This document shows positions 6,390-54,848 of a stretch of DNA of 64,000 bases, piece by piece. The translations under genes and the position numbers were made by a program. This DNA is from Marsupella aquatica (Eukaryota; Plantae; Marchantiophyta). Below the pieces are notes generated by a model that saw nothing but the letters and a program-made list of their open reading frames with translations, was not told the DNA's origin and searched no databases. Numbering within the stretch: the stretch's first letter is position 1; every line of letters begins with the position of its first letter. The stretch spans positions 2,748,430-2,812,429 of the forward strand of contig OZ316893.1 of NCBI GenBank assembly GCA_973895155.1. The letters run 5' to 3'.

Positions 6390-9300
6390 CTACTGGTCCA
6401 CATCAAGGGTCAAAACTAGATCGGCAAGTGGGATTGGAACATCCTCTAGGGGAGCTAGCCAGTGCGGAGGCACACTAGCACCCACTGTAAGAGATCGACG
6501 ATAGATGGCCCGAGCTTGAGCATGCTGCAAGGTGACTGAAATGCGTTGGCGAAAGTGCGTGGTCAAAATAGAAAGTGGGGGTCCGGTGAGACCCATGCGG
6601 CCATGAACATCCCAGGCAGCTTGCCAAAGAAGCCCATCAAACTGAGGATGAAGACGCCCAAATAGCTCCAGAGCAAGGGGGAGGAAGCTGTCGGATGAAG
6701 CTCGTGCAGCATATTTGGCCTCCTTCGTTGTTGCCGCACGTGACGCTGCTGCCCCTGCCGTAGTTGCCGCTGTCCCAATGATGTCTTGGCGCAATGGGTT
6801 TGCCACCACTACATCTGCCAATGTACGTTGACCCTCACGGACCATGGTAAGATCCACCCGTAACCGCTGTGATGGAGGACCAGGTAACTCGAGTACCACC
6901 TCCCGCCGCACGCATACCAAAGAGCCAGAGAGAACCTGAGCAGTCGCATCTCGCACAGCGTCGTGAACTATAATGGTTTCACCTCCCAAACTGCATCGAA
7001 GAAGATGGACACCTGTGGCATCACAAGGCTTCCCACAAGTGCAAGAAGGAGGTCAACCTGCAAGAAGTGGATGGGGCAGCCCCATACGAAGACGCATGGC
7101 TGTGGAGAACTCCGTTGAAGACATCCGCAAATGAGGAATGACTGGATTGGCCTGAAGCCATCCACCTGCGCCCTTCCCTCCGGAAGAAAGAATCCGAGCT
7201 CAGTCCGTGTCAGGTGCCTCGGAGAGGATGCTAGAAAGGGTGAAAGCGTGCATACGCCCAGCAAGGTCTGCCTGAAGATGAACGGGATCCAAGGATAAAA
7301 ACTCCTGAAAAGAAGGTAACGTGGCGCGAACGGGATCTGGTAATGAGGACCGCGCTGCGTGCAAATGAACCTGAAATGGGAGGGAACCCTCCTCTACCTC
7401 CATGAGAGATGAAAGTAAAAAAGGGCAATCCTCAATAAGAAAACGATCGGCCAACAATGAGAAGGCGGCCGCCCACGCACCCAAAAAGGCCAAAGGTGCA
7501 AGGCTCTCAATGGAAGTAAGCCCAAAACCACCCTATGAAATAGGAAGACTGAGTTGTCGATGAAGCCACGGAGATGAGAGCAACGTACCCGGCCCCAAAA
7601 GAGAGGCCAGGGTCTGACGAATGGAGACATCAAATGCTCGAAGGTGGAGACAAAGATCCTCGGTAGGGGGATGCGTCCTAGCCAGATAAGACGCACGAGG
7701 GTGGATGCACCTCAACAACATCCCAAATGCTGCCTGAAATCTGCTAACTTAGGGAGCATAAGAGTAGAGGCAAGGCAGCCTGTAGAGAGTCAGCAATGAA
7801 AGAGGAGCAAAAAGAGGCGGTACCGACTGGGGAGCCAAGGACCCAAAGACCATCGGCTGGACGTAAGAACCCTGGGGGAAGCGTAAGATCAGAGGGTAAC
7901 CCAGCTGGACTCCATGCACGACTCTTCACAGGCTGAACTCGTAAACCGAGGCCCATCAAATGGGTGGAAAGAGTGGCAAGGGCAGAAGTAACTGCGGCAG
8001 GAGGACCAATGATGTGGGTGTCATCTGAAAGGGAGGGGAAGATACACTGGGGGTGGGCCATGGCAGCTTCCCGTAAAGCTGTAAAATGGGCAATGGCAAA
8101 AAGAGGCCCACCCAAAGGGTCACCCTGATGAGTACCTTCTGTAGAGGAAAGAGTGGGAGTGATGACTATAGAAGAGTGGGGCCTCGAGTCCATAAAAACA
8201 ACGGACAAAGGGGATCAAGGACTGGATGTCTGGATCCTCCGCCCTCAAAGCACGAAAAATGGCTGCCCGAGAAACCGTATTAAAAGCGTTAGAGACATCA
8301 ACCTGGAGGACAACCCAATCAGGGTGGAGGTCCAAGGTAGCTCGAATACCCGCAATAACTGTCTCACAACCGCCAGGAACGCCAACTGCAAACTGATGTG
8401 GAGAGAGATGATCCGATAGTGCAGAGCGAAACTGCGAGGAAAGTGTGTGAGACACAAGCCGAAGAAAAACCTCCCCAATAGCAATTGGCCGAACACCCGG
8501 TGAAGACTTAGCCATGGCCAATAAACGAGAAGCACTCAAGAGCCGAGAGACGGGAGGAGGCAAACGACCGGCTGCAATACACTGGCAAAAGGAGAAGAAG
8601 ACTGGAAAACCAAACTGAGGATCCTCAAGGGGGAATAAATCCCGAAAATGCTCAAAGACATAGCCGGAGGGGCCACCAGCAGCGCAACACGGGGCATGGA
8701 GGAAGGCAAAGGTGAAGTAGTCCCTACTAAACTGAAGATCCTCCTCAGGCTCAAAATCCTCTACGAACAAAGGGAGCTGATCAGGGGGCTGCCAAAGGAG
8801 ATCCTGAAGGGCCGACGAGGTGACCTCGCCAGGGGGGGCTGGTGTGGTGGGAGAAAGGGCCTGGACAGCCCGATGATATTCACCAGCCTAGGCTAAACGA
8901 CAAGAGCGACGAAGACGTCTATGCTCAGGGGGATGAGAGTGGCGGGCTGGGTCAGACAAAGCACGGGCGGTAAAAGATCGAGCGCGAAGAAAGTACTCTA
9001 ATGAAGCTGCTCCCAATCTCCCCGCAAAAAACGATGGATACGAGAGGCAATCTTACGGTGACCCACACGACCACCATGACTAGGGAGGATAAGAGACCAC
9101 TATGGAAAAAGCATCAGTAAAGACCAGTAGGAGACCTCCATAGGATGCGCCAAGATAAGCTGCATGAGTTGCAACAAGGAGGATCGAACTAAAGGGCGCA
9201 GCGCCAGAGGAACGTGGTTATAATGTACCCTGGATGGTAGGCTGTAAGGGGGTCTAGAGTGCGAACCCAACTCCATGCCTGCTCGGGAGCCTCCAAGGAG

Positions 9301-9764: not shown

Positions 9765-10073
9765 TCCGATAAAAGCAAAAACGCATCAAGAAGCAACAAA
9801 AGGCCCAACTGAGGCAGGTGAAAAGAAAGGGGAGGCGATGGAGAGAGCCCACCGCATCAGGCCGAGAAATGGCGCCACCACTAGCCTAGGAAACCGTTGA
9901 GCAGGTGCAGGAATAGTAAGGAACAAAGCTGAAGCGCCCGTCGAGCTGTCCGCTGGGGAGTCGACGCGAGTGAAGATCCGTCCTCTGGATTGAGCGTGCG
10001 GCTACAGCTCTCGAAGGCGACAACCAATTGGAGGAGAAAGCGATGGCCTAAAGCCGATGTGACTCGCTCATAC

Positions 10074-10867
10074 GTTGACCCAAATCGAGTCGTGAAGACG
10101 CCAAGATCGCCAAACGCGCAGCCAATGTGAAAAAATGGCGAAACCTAAATCTGACGTAACTCGCTCAATTGGTGATCGTTTGGGGCGCAATTCATTTCGA
10201 TCTTCACTGTCTCGCCAAGATCTTTCCAAAGCCGTCAAGAACACCCAGATCCGAAACTCCTGGAGAAAGTTATGAACCAAATTGAGTCGCGAAATCGCCA
10301 AAATCGTCAAACGCGCAAAAAAAGTGAAAAAACGGCGAAACCTAAATCCGATGTAACTCGGTCATAGGGTGACCGTTTGGGGCGCAAGTAGTATCGATCT
10401 TCACCGCCTCGCCAATATCTTTCCAAAGCCATCAAGAACTCCCAGATCCGAAACTCCTGGAGAGAGTTACGACCCAAATTGAATCGCAAAATCGCCCAAA
10501 TCGCCAAACGCGCAGAAAAAGTGAAAAAACGGCAAAACTTAAATCCGATGTAACTCGCTCATACGGTAACCGTTTGGGGCGCAAGTCGTATCGATCTTCA
10601 CCGCCTCGCCAAGATCTTTCCAAAGCCGTCAAGAACTCCCAAATCCGAAACTCCCGGAGAAAGTTACGACCCAAATTGAGTCGCAAAATCGTCAAAATCG
10701 CCAAACATGCAGAAAAAGTGAAAAAACGACGAAACTTAAATCCGATGTAGTTCGCTCAGACGGTGACCGTTTGGGGCGCAAGTCGTATAGATCTTCACCG
10801 CCTCGCCAAGATCTTTCCAAAGCCGTCAAGAACTCCCAAATCCAAAACTCCCGGAGAAAGTTACGAC
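10074..10867. repeat. Four tandem ~197-bp repeats in the 5' region of the CRE-like element
   Basis: Unit starts near 10076, 10273, 10470 and 10667; shared cgtttggggcgcaa and tctttccaaagcc(g/a)tcaagaac. Confidence 0.93.
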
Positions 10868-11533
10868 TTTGCGAATGAGTTTGCGAGATCAGGCGTTTGT
10901 CCTCCAAAACCTGAGGGCCCTAATGCAGAACCCATGCCCGTCTGGACGACAGAGAACAACACTCTAAGAAGGAACAGATCAGAACAGCGAATAGAAGGAG
11001 TGCAAGTAGAATCGAAGGACTACTTGCACTCCTACAATGCAAGGCAATAGCTTTGATTGATTGCCAATTGGTTGAAAACTAGTTTGGCCTAGATCTACAA
11101 GTATAATAGACTATCTTGTAATAGACTATCTCGCCCATTTTTGTCCTTTGTCTCGTTACAAAATGCATTATGGGTAGGAAACATTTCTGGCCATTAGATC
11201 ATGCCTAAGTTTTATTTCAACTGCATGATCTCAAAACAAAGGCTATTTCATTGAACTAGGTGTTTTCCTTGATGTGCCCTGCCCTCCTGTATTAATACCC
11301 TGGTACTCCTCAATCCTGACATACAATTAAAAATACAAAATAATAAAAATGCATTGAAGAATTAAAGGCCTAATGGTTCAGCCAAGGGACATTGCCCTCT
11401 GTGGGCTTACACTATGTATCTCCATGCTTGAATCACATTGACAATTTTTCATGACAAGTATTATGGGCCTTGATAATTTAGTGCCCAAAATTCTCTTTGA
11501 ATGCAATGAGTGAATAGTAACATATTTGGATTT

Positions 11534-16240: not shown

Positions 16241-16511
16241 CATACTTTAAATACAGAAAAATAGTGGCAGTGTTATCAATTGAAATATCTTTAGTGCAAA
16301 GTAATCAAAAGTTGTCATTAAAATTTTGTACCTAACTGGCAAAACATTTCAGAGTGCTTGTGAAACATCTGAATCATTTTGTGATGCAAATTTATATGTA
16401 AGCATTACTTTTTAAAATTAAAATTAAAAAGTAACAAAAACAGTAGAGCATGTATTAGGCTGGTTAAAGGCATTAAAACATACATAAGTAGGGGTAAACA
16501 AACTAAGTTTC

Positions 16512-16613
16512 TGGGCATTACAGCACACAACAATGTTTTGGGCATTATAGCACACAACAATGTTTTGGGCATTATAGCACACAACAATGTTTTGGGCATT
16601 ATAGCACACAACA
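16512..16613. repeat. 27-bp minisatellite, ~4 copies
   Basis: (tgggcattatagcacacaacaatgttt)n. Confidence 0.9.
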
Positions 16614-17070
16614 AACATTAAAATTTAAGCTTAGAGCATCTCCAACGGTAGGGTCAAATGCACCCATAACCTTTAAAACAAGCATATAGGGGTTGGTATA
16701 TGTTGGAGTGATGGCTTCCCAGGTGTGGCCCCTATCCCTAAATAAATGGCAGCCAGCCTCCATCTTCATAGCCACTGACATATTTGGTAGAAATGGCAGC
16801 CTGGAGAGAGACCTTTATCCTGACTTCCAATCCCATTGACGTCAGAGATTCCAACCACATGTCACAAGATCCCAGATATTCTGATATTCTCAAGATGTGG
16901 AACCTGGGCATGTGACAACACATCATTTTGGAGGAATAGAGGTCAAAGAAGGGGAGGGGGTCAACTTGGGAATGGATGCCAGTCAGAGGAATAACTGGTT
17001 CTGGCAACGCTGAAGATGGTGCAGCTGACGATAATTGATCTCTCTTTATGGACCTGGGCCTTGTCTCCGT

Positions 17071-17285
17071 ATGAAGCACGAAAGACAATCTCGAGGACAA
17101 TCAATGCCCCTAATTGTGCTAATCCGGGCAGGGAACCCTTCGGGCAGTTTTTGCTGCCACGTTGCCCTTTCAGGACCGGCCCATGTCCTGCACACCAGGC
17201 AAGCAGGTCCCGCTTGCCTTGGCGCCCTCCACCCTACAAATGCCCTCCGCCAGCCCTCCGTCCGCCCTTCACCCGTCCGTCAACC
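17071..17285. repeat. Left terminal inverted repeat (GC-rich, 215 bp)
   Basis: atgaagcacgaaagacaatctcgaggacaatc...ccgtcaacc. Confidence 0.92.
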
Positions 17286-17824
17286 GCAGGGAAAGTTTTA
17301 TGACCAACTCCATGCCAAAATGCCAAATGATGAACCCCAAAGTTAAGAGGAATGTGTCTCCCCTTGAATCTCACATTTGTGAGCGTTGGACTATTTGGTG
17401 GGTACGCTGTCACAAGCTCTTGAAGAGCTTTTAATCCTTGGAAGGTAGGGTCATTCTTGAAAGGTCTTTGTAGGGCATTTTTCAGAAAGTAGAACAATGG
17501 CTTCTCATTAGAATCCTTAATGATAATATCTTCACCATGCCACATTGGTAGATCAACAATGGAAAAGAATTGATGCTTTTGTTGAATCAAGTCTTCAACA
17601 GTGGTGTCGATTTTGTTTACCTGAAATTTTCCCAATAAAAACCTGAAAATCTTCCAAAACCTTGGATTCTGCTCCCATTCATAAGTTGCAGATGTTTTAG
17701 GTCGTCTAGAACCTAATCCTTCACTTTTCTCAAAGTCTTCATCTCGCTTCCTCTTTCCAGGTTGCCCTGAAAAATAATCCACATTCTTTCGATCTTCTTT
17801 TACTTCTTTCTGTTTTGGTTTCAT
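17234..17824 (-). pseudogene. Truncated TET/JBP-like 2OG-Fe(II) dioxygenase (N-terminal half only); the ORF runs into the TIR
   Basis: Segments DIIIKDSNEKPLFYFLKNAL and FGVHHLAFWHGVGHK resemble, from memory, the pre-catalytic motifs of basidiomycete TET/JBP proteins; no HxD/H/R catalytic residues present. Confidence 0.55.
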
Positions 17825-19544
17825 TTTTTTTAAATACTTGGTCCTGGTTGAGATGTACAGTTATACTCCCCTCAACTAGAATGTTAACGCAGTTACGTAC
17901 ACAGGTGACCAAGTATTTTAAAAAAACTGCAAAGAGAGAATTGAAGTAAACAAAGATTTTGATTGTCCTTATGCAGATTGGACCACGGTAATCTATTTAG
18001 AACTCTGCAAAGATAAGTGAAAAAGAAAGGCTTTGTCAAAGAACAGATCACATAGCACATAGACCAAAATCTATTGACAATTTTGCAAATCTATGTAGAT
18101 TTTTGCACAGGCAACTGAAAAGGAAAGTTTTTGTAAAAGAACAGATCACAGAGTCACTCCAACCAAAAGATTGTTTGCCGTCAGCCTTTGCATAAGAAAT
18201 GTGCATTAAACTCAGTAGAGTAAACTGAAAAGCAAATTTTTGTAAAAAAACAGATCAACGAGTCACGGCCACCAAAAACTTTGTCCAAATTGCATATAAA
18301 ATTGCATTAAACTCTGTAAAGTGCCAGATTGTGTACAATGTTGGACTTTGTATGAAAGAATGAATGAAAATTAGAGAAAAAAATGAATGAAAGACAAGAA
18401 ACTAACAAACTTTCTTGGGAACCGATAGTCCACTTAGAGCACAAAAGAAAACTTCTTGGAATAAGCAATATAAGTACCTTGTGAAATGGATTCTGAATTG
18501 TTTCCTTCACGCTTTCACTTGCTGGCTGTTTGGAATCTAGCTTCTCAATAGCCATAGCTATAGATGTCGACCCCACTGTATTCCAAGCAATATCCTTGTT
18601 GCTTTAATTTGATTCTCTTCCAGATCTATTATGTCGGTAGTCCTCTCCAATCTGCTAAGTCCTTATGAATCTGGTTAGTCCTCTCTGACTTTGCTGAACC
18701 TTATGGATGCTAAAAATTTCCAATCCCCGTAGCCATAGTGTCTCACATGGCCCCACTCTAGTCCAAATCATCTAGATGTTGGTGCCTCTTCCAATCCCCT
18801 TAGCCTTTCGACATCGGCTCAATCCAGTCCAATCTACTCAGCCCTTATGAATCTGCTAATTTTCTTGCTAATTTTCTTGCTCAGCTATCGGGTGGATATG
18901 CTCAACACTATTCTTTGTCCCCTTCCACACCTAAAAAGCCTCAACTAGCTCCTGCTGTCCCCAACAAAATCAGACTGGAAAACCAAGCACAGCCCTTCAC
19001 TCCTAATTCTTTTGGGCCCCTTCCTATCCAACATGAAAAGGAGCAACCCTAAACTCCTTTCCCCATTACGGGGTGGATGAGTGGAGTCCTGAGAATTTTC
19101 TCTTCAATAGGTTTAAGCTTTGAAGTAAATTAGCTGGGAAGATAAGGTTGGGATTGAATTTTTCTGACCTCCCCTTAACATATCTTATAGAATAGAATCC
19201 CATTATCATTTATCAATATGATATTTTTAAGTGACTCTCATTAAACTTGAATTGTGTCTTATTAAGGGCTACTCTTTTGTAATTCAAGTGAATTTGAATT
19301 CTATTATACCGTTGAGTTTTTCTGATTAATTAAGTAGGTACTCATTTTATTCCCGTATAAATTTCTCCCTATCCAAATTCTTTTTTGGCTATTTATGAGG
19401 CCCACACTCAATTGAGCCCACGAATGCATCCCCATATCTTAACCACTATCCTATGAAAAAAAATCATTGTAGCACTTAAATCCTTTGTATATCCATATTT
19501 GTCTGCCATTTGAGAGCAATTTTGAAACTATATCAGGCCTATAT

Positions 19545-19887
19545 TGTTAGGTATTTACTCAAGGTCTAGGGTTACGACATGTAACCATAGTTAGACTAAC
19601 CGTAGTCAGAGACGTGGTTAGGTTAACTAGGATGCACACTATATGCCAAGCGGTGTTTGCTTGGATAAGTGGAACTTAGGTTCATTGTTATGGAGTCACT
19701 TGAGAGATGAGGAGAGCTTACACTGTGGAGACTTGGTATAGCCGACGGGCTTAGAGTTCAGTAAAGCTCTATTGTGTGTTCCCGTGGACGTAGCCTCGAG
19801 GAGGTGAACCACGTATCTCTTGTGTCGACTACTTGCGCGTTGGATGTGTCATGTGCTTACCGTTACGAGTATCGTCTATGCTCAACA
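19545..19887 (+). repeat. 5' LTR of copia 1
   Basis: Matches 26140-26482 with 4 transitions counted by eye. Confidence 0.96.
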
Positions 19888-19889
19888 AT

Positions 19890-19901
19890 TGGTATCAGAG
19901 C
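19890..19901 (+). promoter_or_regulatory. Primer-binding site (initiator tRNA-Met) of copia 1
   Basis: tggtatcagagc 2 nt after the LTR. Confidence 0.93.
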
Positions 19902-21639
19902 ATGCCTGGGAGGTGACATTGTTCGTGACAGGATTTTGTGACTGTTTTTTCCAGCGTTGAGTATCGGTGGATTTCCCAGAGTTCTGTCGCATGGAACTTG
20001 GAGTTTATAGGCTCAACGGATAGATCGGGGCAAGGGTTTTCTAACGGTGCGAAGAAATCGCTGAACGGAGATCGTGGGGTGGAGAGATCTAAGTTTTCAT
20101 CGTTCTGGAATTTGTGAAGAAAGTTGGCAACATTCGTGTTCGATGGTTTTTTGGAGGAGCGACCAGAGTTTGTTTTCCCGACGGTGTGAGCTCTACGGTG
20201 AAGGAGGTGTCACATGCTGCAGCTCTGCTTGTAGATCGGGACGAGCTGATCGTTTTGGTAGATGGTTTGTCGCCGAGTGTGTAACAAGTGCATCGCAATG
20301 AGCAAAAGAAGCATTCTGATTTTCTGACCGGCTATGGAGTCCTCTTTTGCCTGAGCGGGGTTTCTTGTCATTGCACTCGACTCGGAGGGAGAGACGTGAA
20401 GTGCTTGGGCTGAACGGATAGATCACGAAGAGGTGATCATTTTGAGTCCAAGATTGACGATTTTGCCCACGGGAGGAAGAAGTTCTGAGTTTTTGCCACT
20501 GATTGACCAGCAAACGGTGCGGGTGCGCAAATCTTTCCAACCCACCGACATTGGTTTCTGATTCCTCACCATAATCCGAACGTTACAAGGTGCAAGCTCT
20601 TCTCGTTTGATTTCCACAAGGTTTTTTGGATTTCTTACGGGCTAATTTTTTATTCAAAAAATACTCCATTTACGACTCTCTCTCTCTCTAGAGACCTCCA
20701 TTCCACATTGGAGAGAATTTTTTGATTTTTTTTCGGACCCTTACCTGTGGTGTGTCTGAATTCGACTTCTTTGGGGTTAAATCCTTTGTATTGTTGAGGG
20801 GCTATAAGGGGCATTTATTGGCACTTTGTGTTTATACACACAAAGTGCGGGTGTGTATACACACCTTACCTCGCCCCTCCCTGCCGTCGACACGTTCCCC
20901 CCCGTTCACCCTCCCCGCGTACACCACTCCCCGACCACGGCCACGCAGCGCCGGCCGTCTGCCCCGCGCCCTCCCCAACCCCGTTGGACCCTCCCCGCGT
21001 ACACCACTCCCCGCTGCACCCTCGCCGGCCCGCCCTTGCCTCTTGATCCTTCCTTGCCAGTATGCGGCAGCATACTGCCGCCGCCCGATACCCCCGCGCA
21101 TACCCTGGCCTTATACGCCTGATTTAAAAAGGGGTCCCCAACCCCCTTTAGACCCTTATTTTTTTAAATTTCTTTTTTCTCCCTTCTGATTGGCTGCCAC
21201 ATCCCGGGACCTGTCGCCCTCCACTTTAACCGCTTGGACAGGGGGAACGGCCCCCTGTAAGCCCTGCTGCTCTGTGTGGGAATATTCCTAAAAAACAAAG
21301 AGTGTGTTTTCGGCCGTCCGTCAAAGATTCCGTCCGTCGAAAGGTAACTTTTTTCGTTCGTCTTTGGCAAGTTGCTAGCCATCGGAGTTGGCAACGCGGT
21401 GCACAAATTGAATTGCATTTCCGACGTCGGGTACTAGTTCACTTTTTGGTTATTCCCCAAGGTGGTCAAAACGGGGGAGAATTCCAAGTTTTACCCACCC
21501 CGACCAAAAAGTGAATAACTTTTACATCGGAGTTCGTTTTTGATTCTGGTTTTCAGCATTGGAGAGCTAGGCTTTTGGGCTATAAGTTTTGAGTTTTTTA
21601 AAGAAGTTGAAAAAACGTCATTTTTTCTTGCATTCTCAC

Positions 21640-24600
21640 ATGAGTGATTCGGAGGAGATTTTTGAAGAAGTGGATCTTGAAGCACGAGGATCACCACGAC
21701 GGTTTGAGGAGGAGAGAGAGAAGCAGGAGGAAGCGCACGTGACACCGGTACAATCACCGGTGCAGCGAGTAGAAGGGATTGTGAAGGAAAAACAGATGGC
21801 ATCCAGGTTCGGAGGTGTCAAGTTTGAGGTGGAAAAGTATGATGGGCGTACGGACTACTTGCTCTGGGAGAAGCAAGTGAAAGGAGTTCTTCGCGCTATG
21901 GGCCTAGATCATCTTCTCTCTACACGAGAGATGTACAATGATAAGGAGGAGATTCCACTAAAGAGGTGGAGGCAAGAACAAGTAATTGCAGTGAATGCGG
22001 TGATGCTTTATCTGAAGCCGCATATCATCAAGAAGTTGGATGACTACGCGGATTGTGCATCTCTATTCAAAGCCCTAAGGGAGAAGTACTATCGGGAGGA
22101 TGCATCAGATCGATTATACAAGAAGTCTCTCTTAATGAGCCTTCGGCTCAAAGAGGGGAACAAGCTCCAGGATCACTTGGATGAATTTGACAGCCTAGCT
22201 GTTGATTTATCTAATCTCGGTAAGGGCGTTGAAGAAGAGGACAAGACCTTGCTTCTTCTCAGCTCTTTACCCCCATCTTATCAGGGTTTGAAGCAGGTTC
22301 TCTTGTATAGAGACTTGAAGTCTATTTCATACGATGAGGTGGTAAACTCTTTGCTGTCAGATGATGCACAGAAGAAGTTGGGTCAAGCCCAAACAGCATC
22401 GTCATCTGGTGCTGCCTTGAATGTGAATCGTGGGAGGTCACAACGGCGTCCCGAGCAGCGCACGAATGGCAAGGGATGAAGTAAATCTAGGACAAGATTT
22501 GCTTCAAGGGGGAAGTCCCAAGAGAGAAAGCCAGTAGTCTGCTGGAAGTGTCACAAGGTTGGTCACGTTAAGAGGGATTGTAAGGGTAAGGCAGCTGAAT
22601 CTTCATCAGCCAATGTGGCTAGTGCTGATGGAGAAGTTGATTTACTCAATGATGAGTATGTTTTATGAAGTCAGGAGTATGCCCTGTGCACATCATCTAG
22701 GAGAGAAAATGATGTGTGGATTCTTGATTGTGCTTGCTCTTTTCACATTTGTTACATTCGCAAGTATTTCAATTCTTATTCTGTGTCAAACGGTTCAGTT
22801 TTGATGGGAAATGATCACTCCTGTCGAGTTGAGGGTATTGGATCTATAAAGATTCAAATATTTGATGGTATTGTGTGCACAGTGTCCGGAGTCAGGTTTG
22901 TACCTGGCATGCGTAAGAATTTTATTTCACTCGGTGTGTTGGATACAAATGGTCATCAATGGCGAGTAATTGATGGTGAACTTCAAGTCATGTCGGGAGA
23001 GAAAGTGATTTTGAAGGGGAGCAGACAGAAGAATTTGTATGTGTTGCAGGGCAATACAGTATGTGGAGAGGCCAATGTAACCAAGTCTCACGAGGAAATG
23101 ACTAAACTATGGCATTCACGGCTAGGCCACATGAGTGAGAAGGGTTTGGCTATCTTACAGAAGAATGGACTCATTTCTAATTTTCAATCTTGTAAATTAG
23201 AGTTCTGTGAGCATTGCATTTTTGGAAAGCAACATCGTCGTGCTTTCGGTGTTGGAACTCATTGTTCAAAAGCGGTTCTTGAGTACATACATAGTGACGT
23301 GTAGGGACCATCCCCGACTCCCTCACATTCTGGAAAATTGTACTATGTATCTTTCATTGACTATTACTCAAGATTTGTATGGATTTATTTCATGATGCAT
23401 AAGTCTGATGTCTTGTCCATTTTTACAAAGTGGAAGGCGGACGTCCCAAGTGGAGAATCAGACGGGAAACACGGTTAAGTGTTTGGATACCAGGGTGAAG
23501 AGTCTGAGGTCAGACAACGGCGGGGAATACACTTCAATAGAATTTGAAGAGTATTGTGCAGAACAGGGGATAACTCGCCATCTCACCATAGTTTATACTC
23601 CGCAACAGAATGGTGTCGCTGAGAGGCTCAATCGAACACTATTGGAGCAGTCACGGAGTATGCTGAGCCAATCAGGTTTACCACAGGAATTTTGGGCAGA
23701 AGCTGTCAATACTGCAGCTTATTTGGTAAATCTTTCTCCTTCTAGTGCAATCAATTTCAAAACGCCGTTTGAAATACGTTATAAGCGGCAAATAGACTAT
23801 CATGGCTTGGTAGTTTTTGGAAGTGATGCATATGCTCTCACCCCAAAGCAGAATAGGACCAAGTTGGATCCTACGTCCAAAAATGTATTTTTCTTGGGTA
23901 TCAAAGTGGTGTGAAGGCCTACAGGCTATGGGATCCTATTGCCTGTAAGCTTGTTGTCAGTAGGGATGTTTCCTTCAATGAATCTAGATTATTGAAGGAG
24001 GGGGAGAATACTCAGGTCTCCCGTACTGACAAAGGGAAATCTCCTATCCCGGATCTCATTGAGGGGGAGATTGATCATGAAGTGCATGATTGGAGAGAAG
24101 GAGGTGCTCCAAGCATGGAGCTGGTTCCTGTGCCAGAGGAACAAGAGGAGTTTGTTGATGCTGGTAAGCAGCAAGTGGATGCTGCTGAGCTTCAAATTAT
24201 ACCAGTAGACGCAATTCAACCGGAGTCATCGGCTAGAAGAACATCTAGTCGCACTGTACGCGTTCCTCCTAGGTATGGACAGTGGGTTGATTCATCTCAA
24301 CTGCAAGAGGACGATTTTGCAGCTGATGATGAGGGTGATGCGTTAATTTTGGAAGAAGGGGAACCTTCTTCATTTCATGAGGCAAGTGCTTCAAAGGAGA
24401 AGCAAAAGTGGACTACAACAATGCAAATGGAGATGCAGTCATTGAAGGACAACAAAACTTGGGAGCTTGTTAAGCTACCTAAGGGTCAGCAAGTGGTGGA
24501 CAGTAAGTGGATATACAAACTGAAGGATCAGTCTACGGGAGGTGGATCAAAGGTCTACAAGGCTAGGTTGGTAGCCAAGGGATTCACACAGGAAAAAGGT

Positions 24601-25947
24601 GTGGATTACAATGAGGTCTTCTCACCAGTTGCTAAGTACTCTACAATACGGCTATTGTGTGTACTTGTTGTAATGTTTGGTTTGCTGCTAGATCAGATGG
24701 ATGTTGTCACAACTTTCCTCTATGGCACCTTGGAAGAGGTGATCTTCATGAGACAGCCGCTAGGTTTTGTGAAGAGAGGACAAGAAGAATTGGTTTGCAG
24801 ATTGCTGAAATCCTTGTATGGGTTGAAGCAGTCACCAAGACAGTGGAACAAGCGGTTTGATGATTGGATTCGGTCACAAGGTTTTCACAGGAGTGTGTTT
24901 GACCCTTGTGTATATTTAAAACCGGTGAAGAATGCTGTCTTTGGGTTTATTGTTTTAGTACTTTATGTGGATGACATGCTTATTGCGACCAAGGATAGGT
25001 CTGAGATTGTTAAGCTTAAGGCACTGCTAAATGCAGAGTTTAAGATGAAGGACCTAGGGCCAGCTAAGAGGATTTTGGGTATGGAGATCACTAGGGACTT
25101 GGAGGCTAGTAAGCTATGGTTGACACAAAGTAGTTATGCGAGGAAGGTAATTGCTAGGTTCAACATGGAGAATAGCAAGCCAGTAAGTACCCCGTTGGCT
25201 CCACACTTCAAGTTATCATCAGCGTTCTGTCCTACGGATGACACAGAGAAGGGGTTGATGTCAAAGGTTCCTTATGATAAGGCAGTGGGAAGTCTCATGT
25301 ATTTGATGACTTGCACTAGACCTGATCTTGCCATGGCTATGGGCAAGGTGAGCAGGTACATGTCGAATCCAAGGAAGGTACACTGGGAAGCAGTGAAGTG
25401 GATTATCAGGTACTTGAAGGGTACCGTGGATTATGGTCTTTTATTTGATGCAAATGCAAAGAATGCAAGATCATTGATTGGCTATGTAGATTCTGACTAT
25501 GGACAAGATCTGGACCGAAGGAGATCAACAACAGGGTACGTGTTCACACTTGGCGGTGGATGCATAAGTTGGAGGTCTACTTTGCAGAAGTGTATTGCTC
25601 AGTCTACTACAGAAGCGGAGTATGTTGCAGCAGCGGAAGCAACGAAGGAAGCGATTTGGTTGGATAGACTTATCACTGAAATGGGATTGCCACAGGGGAA
25701 TGTGAAGCTCCATTGTGATAGTCAAAGTGCGCCCCACCTTGCTGTGAACCAGGTGATGGACAGTAGAGTGAAGCACATAGACATCAGGTACCATTTTATC
25801 AGGCAGGCTGTGTCTGATAATTTGTTTGAGCTAGTCAAGATAGACGGTAAACTCAACCCAACTGATGCATTTACCAAAGTGATTCCTTCGAAAAGTTTTT
25901 CTAGACATCATGACATGCTGCAGGTTTTACAATTGCGTCACAAGTAA
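21640..25947 (+). pseudogene. gag-pol of copia 1
   Basis: gag (LLSSLPPSY, CWKCHKVGHVKRDC), PR WILDCAC, IN LRSDNGGEY/QQNGVAER, RT YVDD, RH; premature stops at 22477 and 23302, frameshifts near 23440 and 23880. Confidence 0.95.
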
Positions 25948-26139
25948 GGGTTTTTCTTAACATTCGTTGTAATTACTGATATATGCTCTTCTTCACTCCT
26001 AGTAATAGGCTACGGTTTAGTTATGGTTTGCTCTAGTTAGAGAGGGGAAACCATGTTGGTTTTCGTCCAGAACTTCCCACTGAGGAATCATATAGGTTAG
26101 CAGTATTACCCTCCCCTAGACCAGAGTCAAGGGGGAGAT

Positions 26140-26482
26140 TGTTAGGTATTTACTCAAGGTCTAGGGTTACGACATGTAACCATAGTTAGACTAACCGTAG
26201 TCGGAGACGTGGTTAGGTTAACTAGGATGCACACTATATGCCAAGCGGTGTTTGCTTGGATAAGTGGAACTTAGGTTCATTGTTATGGAGCCACTTAAGA
26301 GATGAGGAGAGCTTACACTGTGGAGACTTGGTATAGCTGACGGGCTTAGAGTTCAGTAAAGCTCTATTGTGTGTTCCCGTGGACGTAGCCTCGAGGAGGT
26401 GAACCACGTATCTCTTGTGTCGACTACTTGCGCGTTGGATGTGTCATGTGCTTACCGTTACGAGTATCGTCTATGCTCAACA
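26140..26482 (+). repeat. 3' LTR of copia 1
   Basis: Preceded by PPT aagggggagat; followed by TSD tatat. Confidence 0.96.
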
Positions 26483-26693
26483 TATATTACCTCTTAGGAT
26501 TTGTATATCTATATTTGCCCGCCATTTGAGCGCAATTTTGAAAGCGTACCAGGCCTATGTTACCTCATAGGATGTAGAGAATGAATGTATCGAACGACAT
26601 ACTCAATACATTGACAGGCGGATTCGGCCGACGGGGTTGTGCAACGGGCTTGATGCGATGGCTTCCCAACGGGAGTGTTGTGGGACCCATTAT

Positions 26694-26908
26694 GGTTGAC
26701 GGACAGGTGAAGGGCGGACGGAGGGCTGGCGGAGGGCATTTGTAGGGTGGAGGGCGCCAAGGTGAGCGGGACCTGCTTGCTTGGTGTGCAGGACCTGGGC
26801 CGGTCCTGAAAGGGCAACGTGGCAGCAAAAACTGCCCGAAGGGTTCCCTGCCCGGATTAGTACGATTAGGGGCATTGATTGTCCTCGAGATTGTCTTTCG
26901 TGCTTAAT
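26694..26908. repeat. Right terminal inverted repeat (215 bp)
   Basis: ggttgacgga...gattgtcctcgagattgtctttcgtgcttaat. Confidence 0.92.
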
Positions 26909-28426
26909 GTCTCCGTGGTGCAGTGGTTTTCTGGTGGTTAGTTCAGCACAAAATGGACTTTGCAGATGGACTCAGGTTACTGGTGGTGGTTGGGGTGGGG
27001 GGGAGGTGGCACTCACCTTGGCTAGCTCCTATCAGGGTTTTCTTGCTGGGTTCTTGATAATGGGGTTTTGATCTCTTGGGTTTTCGTCTGGCTCTTGTTA
27101 GCGGTTCGTTAGGCTCTTGATAGCAGTTCTCCGCTTCTGGGGACCCTTCCTCCCATTATGTTCTGCCTCCTCCTAGTAGGCAGTTTGGGGGTCCGGTCCC
27201 TTTCTCTTTTCTCTGGGTGTGCACCTTCTCCTGCCCCCGTTATTTTGTTTTGGTTCTCTCCTGTCTCCTCTCTCCAGACAGGTTGTTTCCGCCCTGCTTT
27301 GCTGGGCTCCGTTGCGAATAAAGCTTTGGGCTCATTCCTAAAAAAAGAAAAGAAAAAAGAAAAGAAAAAAAGGGATCACCCAATGGCAAGCAATGGGCTC
27401 TAGTTAATACTGATGTGAAGTGTTTATTTTGTCTAAAAATTTTAGACCACCACCACCACCAGAGGTGGTCCAAACTATTCCAACTTTGGCTCCTGCATTC
27501 AAGGAGTTTGCATTTATTGGAAAAAAAGAAAAAAAAGAAAAAAAAAGAAAAAAAAGGGAGGGGGGGAGTGCACCCACTAGTGACTCAATTCAATATGAGT
27601 ATTTTTCTAATTTTTAGGCCTCCAAATGATATACTACATTGTGAGTTTAGAGATCATTGACCCCTAAACAGCTGGAGATACTCTTACAGCCCCTCAAAAC
27701 TTGGGTACAGCACTCGTATTGGGCTTATAGTACACAACGAAACGCCCTGGAATGGAAAGAGGGCGTTACTATATACGACGATGATCTGGGCATTGGTGAA
27801 AAAGTAAGTCCATTCAGGAATGCACACTCCCTACTGTCATGAAAAGCACGAGCCTCTTTGAATCTCCATTCTTTCGGCCAGTTTTCTGTAGCTGCTGTTG
27901 CTGTTGTGCTGTTGCTGTTGCTACTACTGCAATTGGGGCATGCATTCCGCAACCTTGTTCTACTATTGCTGGGAAGGGAAGGGAAGGGAAGGCAGCAGGC
28001 GACGTCTCCCTTTTCCTCACAGTCTCTCTCTCGGGCCACCTCTGGTTGCCTAGTGAATGGCATGCCGATGACAGGAAGAATCATTTCTATTTCCTCCCTC
28101 TAATTGTTCGTTTGGTCTGGCACTCTTTTCTTCAGGAGACTGGTCATTACAGGAATCTGGTGGCCTGGTGCCGCGCCTCTGCTTTGATGGACCTGCAGAA
28201 GAACCTTTGCCACATGCAGGTGCCCTACCAGGCTTTCAGGAATCGGGCAGAAATGGGTTGATCGAGGGTCTTATATTCCCCAGCAGAGTGGCGACTTTTG
28301 TTCGGTTCAGAGCATCGAGGAAGAGGCCTAATCAGTCGCTCGCTGTGGGATTTACAATTGGAGAGGTTTACATTTGGGGATGAATTTGTAAGGGCTCTGC
28401 CAGTACAGAGAAGGTCGAGGGCTCCG

Positions 28427-31400
28427 ATGGCATTGGAGAACTCAATAACAGAAGACAAGGAGAAGAAAAAGGTTGGGGCGTTCCGGGCCCCTCAGGAAAA
28501 TTTTACATCCAACGATTTCATTTATGGAAAGCTACTCGGATTGGGGTCATACTCGAAGGTACTCTACACTGCTATGGAACAAACTCTCACTCCCGTAGGA
28601 GCATGGATCGTTTCATCTGTTGTAAAATCGATCGGTCTCCTGAGTTTGGGAACTGATGTCTTGCTGGCGTTGGAATTCATAGGTATTCAGGGTGAAGAAG
28701 AAGGACACGGGCCAAGAATATGCACTGAAAGTGATGGATAAGAGGCACATTATGCGGGAGAACAAAGTGCAGTATGTAAAAATGGAGCGTCTGATTCTGG
28801 ATCAGCTTGACCATCCCGGTGTCACTCGATTATATTTCACATTTCAAGATAATCTTTACCTTTGTATCCTCCAAGCATATTCTTTGTGGCACCCTAACTT
28901 TGTCCTTACCGAATGTAGCATTCTACGACTCTTTTTCTGCATCGCTTCAAATCTTGGAGTTTCAACTGTGCAATCCGCTAAACTGAACATATATTTTCAG
29001 TCCAGTTAACTGTCATCTTCTAGTCCTTGCGTTTTGGGTGCTCTTCGTCTGAAACCCTGCGTAGGGCATCTGGGCAATTTCGTTCAATTTGAGTACTACC
29101 GTCATCGTTCTTAGTGGATGTCGTACAGGAGATTATAAAGTCATTAATTCCTTCCATTTCCAATAGAGCATCGTCAGAATTTAGGTGACCCATTGGATGC
29201 AAGTTTTGTCTCTCGGTCTATGTTTCTATTCCCTAACTACGAGAATTTCAGACATGGGAATGGAGTGTTGTAACGGAGGGGAACTCTTCGACCAGATAAA
29301 AAGGGTGGGTCCTAGCTTCACGATTGTCGTTGGTGGATGTGTAACTGTCTGAAACGGAAAGAAAGGAGTTGGGGCAAGCTTGATACTAATTAATACCAGA
29401 AAGAAGCATGGGAGAAAACCCTTTCCTTTCTCTGGTGTGTGGACGACCGTTTAGGATTGAAGGACCACCGGGGGTGAAGCAAGGCATGGGACCAAAACTA
29501 TAAAACTCTTATCGACGTAAGCACGGCTTAGACCTAAAAAGTATCCGGACATGAAAAGTGGTTGATAACCTAATAGCCGACTTAATAGCCGACTTGGGTA
29601 GGAAGAAAGCAGATATTGAAGGACGATGAGTAGGTGCACGAGCTGCAGAGGGGAGTGATGGGTGAGAGGCAGGCGGTAAGGCAGCTGGAGGGTGCAACTT
29701 GAAGAGTAGGAGCTTTGTGAATCGATAATTGGAATTAAATCGATTTCAATGCCGATCAAGACAATGGTGCAGGATATCTACCAAATATTCGATATGTAAT
29801 GGTCGTGTCTACTTGAGCGTATGTTTCCGGCAAAAGGAGCGAAAGTGAACTAATATTTCATCTGGTTTTGATGTCCAGAGAGGTCACCTTACAATTGAAG
29901 AGACGCGCTTTTATGCAGCTGAGATAGTGGACACGCTAGAATATATCCACAGTGAGGGTTTGATCCATCGCGACCTGAAGGTATACCTTTGCTCTTGTTT
30001 CGCTTCCGTGTGACAGGGTGCATTAGTCAAGGGCGTTGTGCGTTAGTCTATTTCTTAATACTTAAAAGGATGGCATATGAGATTGGAGAAACAAGCGGTC
30101 TGAAATGAATGGGGCAAATTCAGTATGCGCATCCCTATTTTGAAAGGAATGAAAGTCACCTTGGTCATCTTATATATGCAATGGCCTTACCAAGTATTTC
30201 TTGCAATGATCATAAAATCGACGGTGAGTTTGATTTTCCATGCCGCAGCCGGAAAATATTCTTTTCACATCAGATGGGCACGTGAAAATTGCCGATTTCG
30301 GAAGCTCAAAAATGCTGAGGTCCTTCACAAATGGCATTATAACGTGTGATCCAGGTATACTGGTGGATGACTTGACTACGGAATCATAAAACCCTAAGCT
30401 CTCATCTCTAATTGCGTTCGAGAGCTGCCCTTTTCCTTTAGTCTGCTGTCTTCACTATCAACTGCATAATGCAGGGAAACACGCAAATCCACTAAGTTAG
30501 ATGCTTTATATGGTGATTGAATCTGCTGGGCACATTTTGAGTACGATTCCATGTTCTGATTTCTTACCTGGTGAGGGTCACTGTTAAATTCGGGGGTACC
30601 ACTTTCAAAGATGAATTGCATTCTCAAATACATTAGCAAGCTGCGTGTGCACTCGTTGATTTGTACTGAACAAATGTACTTGCGTGATGTATTTTCAGAT
30701 GAAAAGAGCTGCACTTTTGTTGGAACAGCGGAGTATGTTGCTCCAGAGGTCCTCAACAGTCAACATGTAACCCCTCGGTAAATTCCTGTCCTCTTCATGC
30801 TGTTACTGCTCACCAATCTGGAAAGTGGATTATAATTGAGTCTGCAGGGATGTTCGTTGTTCGGATGGTTCTAATATTGGCCATCGTTTAGCTTCAGCAT
30901 TAGGTGTTGAGGCATGGAGATTTCTCCAAAGTTAAAATCATACATACCAACAGCGGTGAAAGGTCCCCGCGAACCTTGACGTAGTCTAGTTCTCGAGGCA
31001 TGATTGTTCACTACATGATTTCTGTCAAGAAGGCTGACTATTGTCAAATTAGATAATGTCCCCTGTCGACGAGGTCATCGTGTCGCTTAGTTGTCTTTGG
31101 CAAGCTGTGTCCATATTCAAAAGGTGCACAGCATGGAACTGCATATTTGTCCTACTGCCGCATTTGGAAGGGGAAATTGCTTGATGAGTTTAAGTGTGCC
31201 CTTGGGTACCGAATTAAATTTGTGGTCTGATGTAATATGCAAAATTTCGAAGTATCGAACTTCTCAGTCTCAGTCTCAGTTCTCAGTCTCGTTTTTGAAT
31301 ACTGCCATCTATGTTTCTTCCGTCGAATTATCTGTTTTCGTAGTAAGTTGTGGCATGGACAGTGTTGATATGTGGGCATTAGGTTGCGTCATATTTCAAA

Positions 31401-34400
31401 TGCTGGATGGGAGGCCGCCATTCAAAGCGGCTAGTGAATACCTCACCTTTCAGAAAGTGATGTCGAGGGACTTCGCAATGCCACAACAATTTGATCCGGA
31501 AGCTAAAGACTTAATTGAGAAGTTGCTGGTAAGCACTGTGTTCATGTTTATAGTCACTGTTCTGCATTCAGTTTATCACCTACTGATCAATTTATGAGCG
31601 TTAGGTGTCGGATAATTCTATTAGAGTTGAGACGTCGATCCCTTAGAAGGACCAGAAATTATGCTTCCATTGATACTTGGAAGATCGTTGTCAGAGCACC
31701 TCGTCTGTTCAGATTCTCTTTTTCCTTGTGGAAACATGCAGTCCACTGAGCACACACTAAAGGATTAGCTGAGACTGTAAGAATTATGGATGCTTGGAGC
31801 CTTTTAGATATGCTGTTAGAGAGGCTCTCTGAGATGCCATCTTGGACAAGTGTGCAACCAAGTACCATCTGTCCACGTGATATTCTCTCTGTGAAGTTGC
31901 TTTCTTAATTGGGCTTAGCTGATTCTGTGAATACTTTTAAACCAGGGGTAATTTCCATACTAGTAACGTACTATTGGGTTGAATTCAGTTCTGTCAATGT
32001 GTGAACAGAATTTACTGCCAGAGAAGAGGCCAGATTTTGCGACCATAAAGCAGCACCCCTTTTTTTCAGGGGTGACGTGGAGTGACCTGTGGACGATGCC
32101 AGCGCCGAGCTTGAACCTACCTTCAGGCCAGGTATATTTCAAGGCGTATCCATTTAGCTATATAATCCGAAAGTGAAGTCTTGCTGAAAGAAACCCATGA
32201 ATATTTTGAGCCTCAAATGAATGTAATCGACAGTAATCAAAGAGATACCGAAAAACCTTTCCTGTTTGTTCACCTGCTTTCTAAACGTGTGAACAATGTC
32301 CAAGGACAATAGTTTCTGCAATGGCAAAATTATTACAATGGGGAAAATAAAGTGCTTTGACTGGTATCTAAATTACAATCATCCACATCTTGACAGGAAT
32401 TGTATATTGTCGGTAATCTGCATTCGTATTAGAATCCCTGGAAGGTTGTGTCTCTCATGATTCAGTACCTGAGACTCAGGAGATGTCCTTGTTATCTTTC
32501 CTGTAGCCAGAGCATTATTTTCCTAGAGATTGGGACTGACGATTATTTTGTGATCACCAGACTGGTGAAGATTGGGGTGCTGCACAATTACAAGCTGGCT
32601 TGGAAGCTTTTGAGTTAAGTGAATCGAGTGAATCGGGATCTGCTTCAAACTCGCAAACTTCAAGCCCGAAGGCCTATGTCTCTGGAGAATTTTCTACGAG
32701 TTTTTCTCGAGAACGTAGTTCTTCACCGTCAGGAGGGTTACCTGGGAACGAAAGCTTAACCGAAGACGGTAGATTGGAACAATGGTGAGCTGGCTTGTCT
32801 GCCCCTTTGTGATTGCAAATGAGCTATCTATGCAATTATTCATGGTTGCCTCACTATAAGTGTTGGAGTATTTAATAATTAGACTGATTCTAAATGGCAT
32901 TTTTCTTACCCTGAAAGCATTTCAGTTAACTAAGAGTTCTTTCTGGATGCTTCAGATCAGAGGCTGAACTGTCTCTCCTGCCTAATTCTATTTCTTTAGG
33001 CAGAGATTCCTCAATCCAGGTGAAAAACTTCTTGAGACCTCATTGGTGAAAAAGTACAGCGGAATGGTGACAAAGAGGCTGCAGCTACTACTCACCGATA
33101 AACCCAGGCTGGCCATTATCGATTTGAAGAAACTCATTTTAAAGCAAGAAATTCCGTGGTCTAACAATCCAAAAGAGCTTTATGTTGAGGTTGAGGACCA
33201 CTGGCGGTTTTCGATTCGTACAGTAAGTTACTGTCAGATCAATGCGATGCTGTGATTTGTTGCTCCAACTGAACCTGACTTCATACAGTTTCCCTTGATA
33301 CATAGTGTGCTGTGTAAGCATCAGGGACACTTTGCTCAATGGAGGATTGAGGATTTAAATTTTTGTTGTACGACATCTGTGCCGTGTCCTCGTTTGTACA
33401 ACTCGCAGACGGGTAAGGAAGGATTAGATATAAGTTTAACCTGCCCAAATAGTAACTGTTGAATACTCTAGTGGCATGCGAGCTGGTTGGCGGTTAGAAC
33501 TTCGGCTGTCGCTACAAGGGAAGAATTAGCACAGCCAGCGGTTATACAGACTAATCGATGATTGGAGTTTGTCCCCCGGTACAAAATTTCTCAAGGAGCC
33601 AAATCTGGTCTAACGTGTGTAGGAGAGTTAGGGAGGCTTAAATATGGGCCTACTGCGAATAGTTTGGAACAAGTTTACCATTGTGAACGCATATAGTGTC
33701 TTTGTGGACAAATGTCCATATGTAGACTTATGCTTGTTTCGTTGATTGGTTTTCCAGCCAAACCTGATTTGGCATTTTGAAGATGTGACCGGGGTAGCTT
33801 TTGGCTGGAGATATGCAATTGAAAAACTTCAAAATAAGCATATGTGCAAGGGAGAGCAGCAGCTATCTAAAGAAGAGACTTCCGAAACACATGGGGAACC
33901 AGCTGAAAGGCCAAATGTCCCACGCCAAGCCGATGCATTGCGCCAGACCCAATCGAAGTCTACAATAGAGCCCATGTCAGAAGAGTCACCGTCTGAGATT
34001 CAAGAACCTCATGGCTTCAGCAAACAGCCAGTCGGAAACCAAAATTCTCAGATAGATTTGGGACGAGTCGACCTGCAAGCCAATTCTCCAAGCGATCCGG
34101 AGATACTTGGAGAATCGGCGCTCTACTGTTCGCTTAGTGCTGAGGTGAATCTTGTACAATCAGCTCAAATATTTAATGACATCGACGTAGCTGTGGCTAC
34201 TGTAGCTGACGAGGTAGCATTGGTGAAAGACGATTACGAGGCAGCTCCTGTGGGTAACGAGAAGTTGGTCTTCAACGCCACTGAAGTTGAAGCAGTGTTG
34301 GTGAAGAGTAAAGTGACCATTGAAGACCATGGGTCAGAGTTGGTTTTAGATAGCAATGAAAACGCCGTTGCGACGCAAGTGGACCAGTTCCGGTGCACCC

Positions 34401-34465
34401 AACCAAGTTTTGGCAGCGGAGGTCACCTGTCAGCAGCTCCTCTGGGTTGTGCTGAGGGGAACTAG
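28427..34465 (+). CDS. PDK1: 3-phosphoinositide-dependent protein kinase 1 (AGC kinase + PH domain), 11 coding exons, ~698 aa
   Basis: Exons 28427-28558, 28683-28863, 29252-29304, 29879-29980, 30249-30354, 30699-30777, 31363-31528, 32009-32131, 32561-32784, 33000-33222, 33758-34465; all GT-AG and phase-consistent (2097 nt); motifs [69 protein letters not shown]...LLLTDKPR...AIEKLQNK; start codon less certain. Confidence 0.92.
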
Positions 34466-50768: not shown

Positions 50769-51629
50769 ATGGCTAGATTCGGAGGAGTAAAGTTTGAGGT
50801 GGAGAAGTACGATGGTCGTACTGATTACTTGCTGTGGGAGAAGCAAGTGAAGGGTGTTCTTCGGGCCATGGGCTTAGCTCATCTGCTCTCTGCGCGAGAG
50901 CAGTATGATGGAGAGGAGGAGATCTCAGAAAAGCAGTGGAGACAGGAGCAGGTGATTGCTGTTAATGCAGTGATGCTTTATTTGAAGCCGCACATCATCA
51001 AACAGCTGAATGATTATGCGGATTGCGCATCACTGTTCAAGGCTCTAAGAGAGAAGTATTACCGGGAAGATGCGTCAGACCGGCTATACAAGAAGTCTCT
51101 CTTGATGAGCCTCAGGCTCAAGGAAGGGAGCAAGATGCAGGATCACCTGGATGAATTTGACAGTCTAGCGGTGGACCTGTCAAACCTGGGAAAAGGAGTT
51201 GAAGATGAGGATAAGGCCTTGCTTCTACTAAGCTCCTTACCGCCGTCATATCAGGGCTTGAAACAGGTGCTCTTGTATAGAGATCTGAAGTCCATTTCGT
51301 ATAATGAGGTGGTGAGCTCATTACTGTCTGATGATGCTCAGAAGAAGCTGGGTCAATCACAGACAGCATCTTCTTCTGGCACTGCGCTCAATGTGAACAG
51401 GGGAAGAGCAGCGCAGCGCACGAATGGACAGAACAGGTTTAGATCTACATCACGGGGGAGATCTAAATCCAGAGGGAAATCGCAAGAGAGGAAGCCTCTT
51501 GCATGTTGGAATTGTGGCAAGCCTGGCCACATGAAAAAGGATTGTCGAGTAAAGGTCCCTACTGCCTCTGCTAACGCGGCATCGAGCTCGCATGAGGTAG
51601 ATTTACTCGATGATGATGACATATTGTGA
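50769..51629 (+). CDS. gag of copia 3 (open; ends at the conserved UGA)
   Basis: MARFGGVKFEVEKYDG...LLSSLPPSY...CWNCGKPGHMKKDC...DDDIL*. Confidence 0.9.
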   Translation: MARFGGVKFEVEKYDGRTDYLLWEKQVKGVLRAMGLAHLLSAREQYDGEEEISEKQWRQEQVIAVNAVMLYLKPHIIKQLNDYADCASLFKALREKYYREDASDRLYKKSLLMSLRLKEGSKMQDHLDEFDSLAVDLSNLGKGVEDEDKALLLLSSLPPSYQGLKQVLLYRDLKSISYNEVVSSLLSDDAQKKLGQSQTASSSGTALNVNRGRAAQRTNGQNRFRSTSRGRSKSRGKSQERKPLACWNCGKPGHMKKDCRVKVPTASANAASSSHEVDLLDDDDIL

Positions 51630-54600: not shown

Positions 54601-54848
54601 AGCATGGAAAAATGACTCTAAACTGTGATAGTCAGAGTGCTCTTCACTTGGCTGCTAACCAGGTGATGGATAGCAGGGTGAAGCACATTGATATCAGGTA
54701 CCATTTTATCAGGCAAGCAGTGTCTGATAAAACTTTTGAGCTAGTCAAGATTGATGGAAAGCTCAATCCCGCTGATGCTTTTACCAAAGTGATTCCTTTG
54801 GAGAGTTTCTCAAGACACCGTGCTACTTTGCAGGTTTTGCAGTTGTAG
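51630..54848 (+). pseudogene. pol of copia 3, in frame with gag; single CAG>TAG stop at 53403-53405
   Basis: PR WILDSAC, HHCC, IN DDE motifs, RT YVDD, RH NPADAFTK all in one frame. Confidence 0.92.

Follow-up and report, generated by a model that had tools for sequence, protein, structure and literature searches.

How part of a gene for a TET/JBP dioxygenase came to lie inside a DNA transposon of a land plant, and what the complete enzyme might have done for its carrier, are the questions raised by the locus analysed here. The window, i.e. the whole stretch of 64,000 nucleotides that was studied, contains on its minus strand an open reading frame (ORF) of 196 codons (Table 1). The ORF keeps its native start and has gained a stop inside the left terminal inverted repeat (TIR) of the surrounding element; it can be said to run into the TIR because codons 181–196 and the stop consist of left TIR letters. 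When the first 540 nt of the ORF were shuffled 20,000 times, the frame was never open. An earlier note on this DNA had described a 196-residue minus-strand ORF that lies within a TIR element and ends in its left TIR, and both the translation and the motifs quoted there were reproduced.

The family of the fragment was recognized by way of its relatives. The 196 residues alone gave no match in Pfam, none in a sequence search of the PDB (E ≤ 10), none among 281 and 31 candidates of a word-index protein search and no identifying match in the ESM Atlas (best 0.84). An exhaustive phmmer search of 1.84 billion proteins yielded 14 matches at E ≤ 1e-3 (best 5.8e-17), 13 of them true relatives; the fourteenth, P0013, an 899-residue repeat protein, was judged spurious and excluded from all alignments. 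Three of the 14 pass the gathering score of the Tet_JBP family with their C-terminal half and a fourth scores lower, the remaining relatives being short N-terminal pieces. A profile search added further full-length members, three of the four tested also passing Tet_JBP. The full-length Tet_JBP relatives comprise 295–349 residues, and the window ORF is 30–45% identical to its relatives, the closest pair being that with P0028 (43% over 151 residues). A profile built from seven relatives, the query left out, matched residues 29–179 of the ORF with 143 bits (E 6e-46), as against 9.1 bits for the best of 1000 shuffles scored with the same profile; the match spans from the N-terminus (P0057 residues 2–181) to the edge of the TIR. 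The homology of the window ORF to PF12851 (TET/JBP) is accordingly significant via relatives, and the family call is right because of this transitive evidence through full-length proteins.

The predicted fold points in the same direction. An AlphaFold model of P0028 (pTM 0.79) found CcTet of Coprinopsis cinerea (7VPN, 7W5P, 8JKK) as its best match in the PDB (Foldseek E 1.8e-13), and the two align with Z 19.8 and rmsd 4.1 over 270 residues at model positions 17–318, the N-terminal half included; TET2, NgTet1 and then CMD1 rank below. The model of the fragment itself, which represents half of one fold, is poor, with a pTM of 0.43; a fold search with it ranked CcTet first with a weak E of 0.24, and upon realignment CcTet did not appear at Z ≥ 2. 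Both CcTet and NgTet1 (4LT5, 5CG8) are distant from the family (identity 13–17%), although the relatives share the H-x-D...H triad with CcTet. On the sequence comparisons, the assignment of ORF 17234–17824 as the predicted pre-catalytic half of a TET/JBP dioxygenase holds, as the earlier note had proposed, with the profile match, relatives that carry HxD...H...R and the CcTet-like fold of P0028 behind it. The profile and structure check called for there was thus positive through the relatives (Tet_JBP, CcTet fold) and negative for the fragment alone, which lacked any Pfam match. The direct motif likeness to Coprinopsis TET put forward at the time did not stand, being undetectable by sequence in the PDB search; the link is transitive.

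What the window copy has lost is clear from the same alignments. HRD, the distal H and the R are present in all seven aligned database relatives, the motifs of the family reading H-R-D-x-x-D and, towards the end, F-[ST]-H; in one relative, P0014, the C-terminus diverges past the HRD motif. The window protein stops at V181, which aligns with V164 of P0028. Since homology ends at the inner edge of the left 215-bp TIR, every catalytic residue is gone, and a six-frame profile search found no catalytic half within the 64-kb window. CcTet and NgTet1 carry the catalytic half, whereas the window copy is without all of it and cannot be catalytic, in agreement with the inactivity that had been assumed from the absence of HxD...H...R. 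Codon 162 (17339–17341) encodes Phe in the window and Ser in the contigs of three sequencing runs described below (X1, X2 and X4), and is therefore a private change of the window copy, within the conserved G-x-G-V-H-H region.

Table 1. Features of the transposon, its cargo and the neighbouring gene, in window coordinates
Feature	Position	Strand	Remarks
Left target site duplication (TSD), GTCTCCGT, 8 bp	17063..17070	.	identical copy at 26909-26916
Left TIR, 215 bp, GC 60%	17071..17285	+	begins ATGAAGCAC
TET/JBP fragment ORF, 196 codons	17234..17824	-	codons 1-181 = N-terminal half of dioxygenase
Break point	17282..17285	.	AACC (+), TIR inner end = part of codons 180-181
Element interior, upstream of TET gene	17825..19544	.	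~100-bp repeats at 17990-18322
Nested Ty1/Copia	19545..26482	+	LTRs 19545-19887 and 26140-26482
Right interior of TIR element	26483..26693	.	
Right TIR, 215 bp	26694..26908	-	8 differences from left arm
Right TSD, GTCTCCGT	26909..26916	.	direct repeat
PDK1 gene, introns, kinase and PH_3 domains	28429..34462	+	starts ~1.5 kb right of TIR element

The element spans 17071–26908 and measures 2,895 bp without the nested Copia. Its TIR arms are 96% complementary over 215 nt. The right TIR and other copies begin with ATTAAGCAC, the left TIR with ATGAAGCAC, and a loose-end consensus from run X1 ends with ATT immediately before 17074. Counting one extra T would give a TSD of 9 bp, a solution that was set aside, the left and right termini then becoming unequal. 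The nested Copia, with 343-bp LTRs that differ at four positions and a TATAT duplication, is a later and young insertion. No transposase was found in the element, the interior ORFs of at least 40 residues being without a Pfam match, and none emerged from tblastx comparison of the interior with the nine metagenome loci discussed below. A further open stretch of 98 codons (18310–18603), which shares the strand of the TET gene and is located upstream of it, is likewise without a Pfam match; it may be what is left of an exon from a second cargo gene.

The surroundings are those of a plant chromosome. The gene to the right is a PDK1 of plant style, which together with the Copia elements we take to mark the DNA as that of a land plant; a long acidic open stretch after the PDK1 domains (33746–34462) possibly represents a C-terminal exon of an unusual kind. 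The TIRs, the 8-bp TSD and this neighbour agree with the earlier placement of the fragment in a plant DNA transposon. Two further Copia elements, kin to the nested one, are located at about 38100–42100 (minus strand) and 50500–55000 (plus strand). Degraded non-LTR retroelements with reverse transcriptase (weak RVT_1) occupy 6393–8887 and 62865–63998, both on the minus strand; from a motif, their C-terminus is presumably of the restriction-like endonuclease type. Tandem repeats of 197 bp (four to five copies, 10049–10967) and 27 bp (four copies, 16498–16632) were also seen, as was a separate dispersed repeat to the left of the element (16600–16950), with high depth and many variants in X1, X2 and X4.

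Public sequencing runs bear on whether the shortened element is real. The element's words are present to 56–62% in four runs, which represent two organisms and two studies and one of which may be the source sample; contigs were compared in four of the six matching runs (X1, X2, X4 and X6). No RNA run was among the matches listed, which is no evidence on expression. In X1, a contig of depth 14 joins the left flank to the TIR (16785–17103) with 0 differences, and the TET part has a depth of 88 against 14 for the flank. The corresponding values in X2 are 137 and about 30, and in X4 a contig across the TIR–TET junction (17229–17403) has a depth of 197 against 59–74. Element depth is 3–6 times that of the flank in these three runs, contig depth being a rough guide that differs from copy number; X6 gave low-depth scraps alone. 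The contigs are 98–100% alike among element copies, and in X2 and X4 they connect 19545 to the right interior, the Copia being absent. The bridging contigs, the excess of depth and the Copia-free forms therefore argue that the shortened element is genuine, is present in a few copies and predates the Copia, and the suggestion that it belongs to a repeated family was borne out by the depth above flank in X1, X2 and X4.

Run X2 also contains a diverged contig, of depth 1014, which aligns from 17310; in place of the window's TIR it runs on for no less than 255 nt beyond the break. By hand translation, the 30 nt beyond the break are in frame and read T-G-H-K-S-F-P-G-V-(L/F), the window counterpart being V-G-H-K-T-F-P-A-V-D; this in-frame stretch covers 30 nt and ends about 85 codons before HxD. 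Among the rows listed, three of the five codons with private changes are synonymous and none is a stop. A second loose end in X2, at 17452, is in frame with a one-codon insertion, and the main contig of this run begins exactly at 17286, the first base beyond the TIR, a hint that the junction is a branch point. The loose ends are leads to putative full-length, high-copy paralogs.

Taken together, the locus is best explained, with somewhat better than even confidence on our part, as a non-autonomous 2.9-kb cut-and-paste transposon of a land plant that has the 5′ half of a TET/JBP gene as its cargo and likely arose by internal deletion from a longer TET-carrying element, likely of ascomycete derivation. 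An internal deletion would have joined codon 181 to the left TIR, the inner end of which falls within codon 180, and the 4-nt AACC overlap at the break is possibly a microhomology by which this occurred. Such a deletion would have cost about 140 codons, the part that in the relatives contains the H-x-D...H triad for Fe(II) binding and the Arg that binds 2-oxoglutarate, and would probably also have taken any transposase located between the TET gene and the TIR. With both TIRs intact, the shortened element could then have reached several sites with transposase supplied in trans, as contig depth suggests, and the Copia would have entered the window copy later.

The nature of the carrier is less easily fixed. 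TSDs of 8 bp are the rule among hATs. The earlier note had pointed to a KDZ or Plavaka transposase. In passages of PMC12730594, Zisupton and Dileera are given 8-bp TSDs with TIRs, features that the window element shares, and a KDZ transposase may have resided in the deleted part; none was recognized by Pfam among the interior ORFs of the element as it stands. Plavaka elements, with TSDs of 2–3 bp and TGT..ACA or CATCA..TGATG ends (PMC12730594, section 3.2.2), are excluded by the 8-bp TSD, and Kyakuja elements, with 7-bp TSDs, CA..TG ends and no TIRs (section 3.2.1), by the 8-bp TSD and the 215-bp TIRs; within these section-level definitions, the combination of an 8-bp TSD with long TIRs therefore fits neither Plavaka nor Kyakuja. 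The ATTAAGCAC termini found no match among the Zisupton/Dileera, hAT7 and IS3EU starts in about 21 of the 165 rows of Table S1 in PMC12730594. The fungal DNA transposons listed as TET-carrying in the part of that paper considered here (Kojima 2025) are Dileera, Kyakuja, Zisupton, hAT7, IS3EU, PHISTA, EnSpm, ESTA, Plavaka and Helitron, in a survey that, as described there, spans three fungal lineages. Like the fungal elements as presented in it, the window element has a TET/JBP gene enclosed by TIRs and a TSD; it differs from them in its land-plant host, its truncated TET gene and the absence of a transposase.

Alternatively, a plant TIR element that had no need of TET may have acquired the gene's 5′ half in the manner of a Pack-MULE, from a host gene or from another mobile element, in which case the fragment would be a passenger unrelated to silencing of its carrier. 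This is the main rival, albeit in our judgement an unlikely one. According to passages of PMC10741241, MULEs have long TIRs, TSDs of 7–12 bp and captured gene fragments; the 215-bp TIRs and the TSD of 8–9 bp fit this description, and long TIRs, such a TSD, a gene fragment and the lack of a transposase are all shared by Pack-MULEs and the window element. Passive movement of TET genes among transposon families, as set out for fungi in section 4.1 of PMC12730594, would also suit a capture. The cargo here is nevertheless no typical plant host gene. Just one fragment can be identified in the window element; it retains its native start together with about 1.7 kb of the DNA upstream, and its truncation coincides exactly with the TIR. 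The high-depth paralog in X2 moreover suggests that the longer gene itself lies in a repeated element, and even under capture the plant lineage would have to contain a donor of TET.

Where the TET gene itself came from may be judged from its relatives. The sole relative with an organism name is from Watsoniomyces obsoletus (Ascomycota, Lichinomycetes). In metagenomes, nine of 143 candidates are relatives, at loci of 1.3–5.2 kb, and two of the nine have an intron-like frame break; their neighbours include a JmjC-like gene and a PhyH gene. For the JmjC-like gene adjoining the relative P0002, look-alike clusters are mostly from Ascomycota. No recognizable transposase was found at the nine metagenome loci (contigs of 1.3–5.2 kb), and a 29-mer of the TIR had no match in metagenome contigs. 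Two of the fungal-like TET genes adjoin oxygenases of the 2OG-Fe(II) type, JmjC-like or PhyH-like (L005, 3367–5049, minus strand; L009, 1859–4771, plus strand), and possibly form a mobile cargo cluster with them. None of 10 candidates in viral contigs and none of 63 in prokaryote genomes is a relative, and no named plant protein appeared among the protein-search matches to the family. A tree was calculated from 18 sequences over 142 columns, unrooted and with no outgroup, P0006, P0011, P0013, P0015, P0029–P0031 and cluster duplicates being left out; its inner support is weak, and in it P0028 is the partner of the window protein (83/85). The nearest relatives thus belong to a soil/lichen ascomycete-like subfamily other than the Coprinopsis (AG) type, to which the fragment had previously been compared. 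From these sequence affinities, a fungus-to-plant transfer of the TET gene is likely the simplest reading.

A vertically inherited, old TET gene of seed-free plants, its fungal likeness being due to sparse databases or to plant-to-fungus transfer, appears to us distinctly improbable. P0028, the nearest relative, is intact and comes from a sequencing-run assembly, so that it could be from a plant; an organism name is attached to just one of the relatives looked up, and identities amount to only 30–45%. On the other hand, ascomycete affinity is shown both by the relative that has a name and by the gene adjoining a second one, and named plant proteins are missing from the search matches. The green lineage does possess a TET/JBP member in CMD1 of the green alga Chlamydomonas, which by fold lies below CcTet, TET2 and NgTet1 (Z 14.7 versus 19.8 for CcTet); the window family, in contrast, is compact, without a zinc finger and ascomycete-like. 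This dissimilarity to CMD1, together with the ascomycete affinity, makes it likely that the window family entered plants independently.

There is very little to recommend the view that the truncated ORF has a function of its own, for instance that it acts as a decoy that binds DNA or gives rise to small RNAs regulating intact copies. It offers 196 open codons with a native start and a stop inside the TIR, and the shortened form is repeated; its product would nonetheless be half of one fold (pTM 0.43), and the open frame requires no selection because the family is young (TIRs 96% and contigs 98–100% alike). An assembly chimera or fungal contamination, as the fungal-like relatives and the frequent presence of fungi in samples of seed-free plants could suggest, is largely refuted and close to negligible, given that the fragment lies inside a TIR/TSD element with a plant Copia and beside a plant gene, and that, in material of two organisms from two studies, contigs span both the flank–TIR and the TIR–TET junctions and depth is above that of the plant flank.

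If the TET gene was once complete, its chemistry can be predicted. By alignment, the second Asp and the final His of the relatives correspond to Asp234 and His297 of NgTet1, which, in the portion of PMC11040006 considered here, grip the 5-methylcytosine (5mC) base and disfavour 6mA; the Asp is kept in the relatives as in NgTet1, giving the conventional pyrimidine pocket, whereas CcTet, which tolerates 6mA, has Gly331 there. The relatives read HRD, and the PE type of TET/JBP with HxE in place of HxD, as defined in section 3.4 of PMC12730594, was ruled out. The equivalents of Asp234 and His297 therefore make it likely that the intact enzyme is a predicted oxidase of 5mC (or thymine) in DNA.

By analogy with the fungal TET-carrying transposons, where this role is hypothetical too, an intact enzyme of this kind would remove the silencing methylation from the element that encodes it. 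A plant parallel may be seen in VANDAL/VANC, where a plant DNA transposon bears a gene against its own silencing by methylation; the window cargo, if intact, would act likewise. VANC is a sequence-specific DNA-binding factor, while the window cargo is an oxidase homologue. VANDAL/VANC elements are cited as anti-silencing MuDR elements of Arabidopsis in the part of PMC12730594 considered here. It is tempting to speculate further that a multi-copy transposon of land plants took a complete TET gene from a soil or lichen ascomycete and still encodes an active 5mC oxidase, represented by the high-depth paralog of organism B, which would write 5hmC, 5fC and 5caC on the element's own copies and so let them escape silencing. 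We regard this as possible, if on the doubtful side; it would be the first enzymatic source of oxidized methylcytosine in an embryophyte.

To our knowledge, plants are said to be without TET enzymes. A TET/JBP gene in Physcomitrella is reportedly mentioned, perhaps, in papers from the Aravind group. Our search of the literature, most subscription papers falling outside its scope, returned no title or opening of an abstract that concerned a land-plant transposon with a TET gene, and the main text of the bryophyte pangenome paper (PMC12513842) mentions neither TET nor a dioxygenase, its transfer tables being a place that could bear on novelty. DNA transposons that carry TET genes are already known in fungi, as passages of PMC12730594 attest. 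By its sequence relationships, a TET of fungal type carried by a plant DNA transposon would then be a new setting for a known partnership. It extends the association of TET genes and transposons from fungi to land plants, suggests that an anti-silencing module crossed kingdoms and makes the question of 5hmC in plants testable in a named family.
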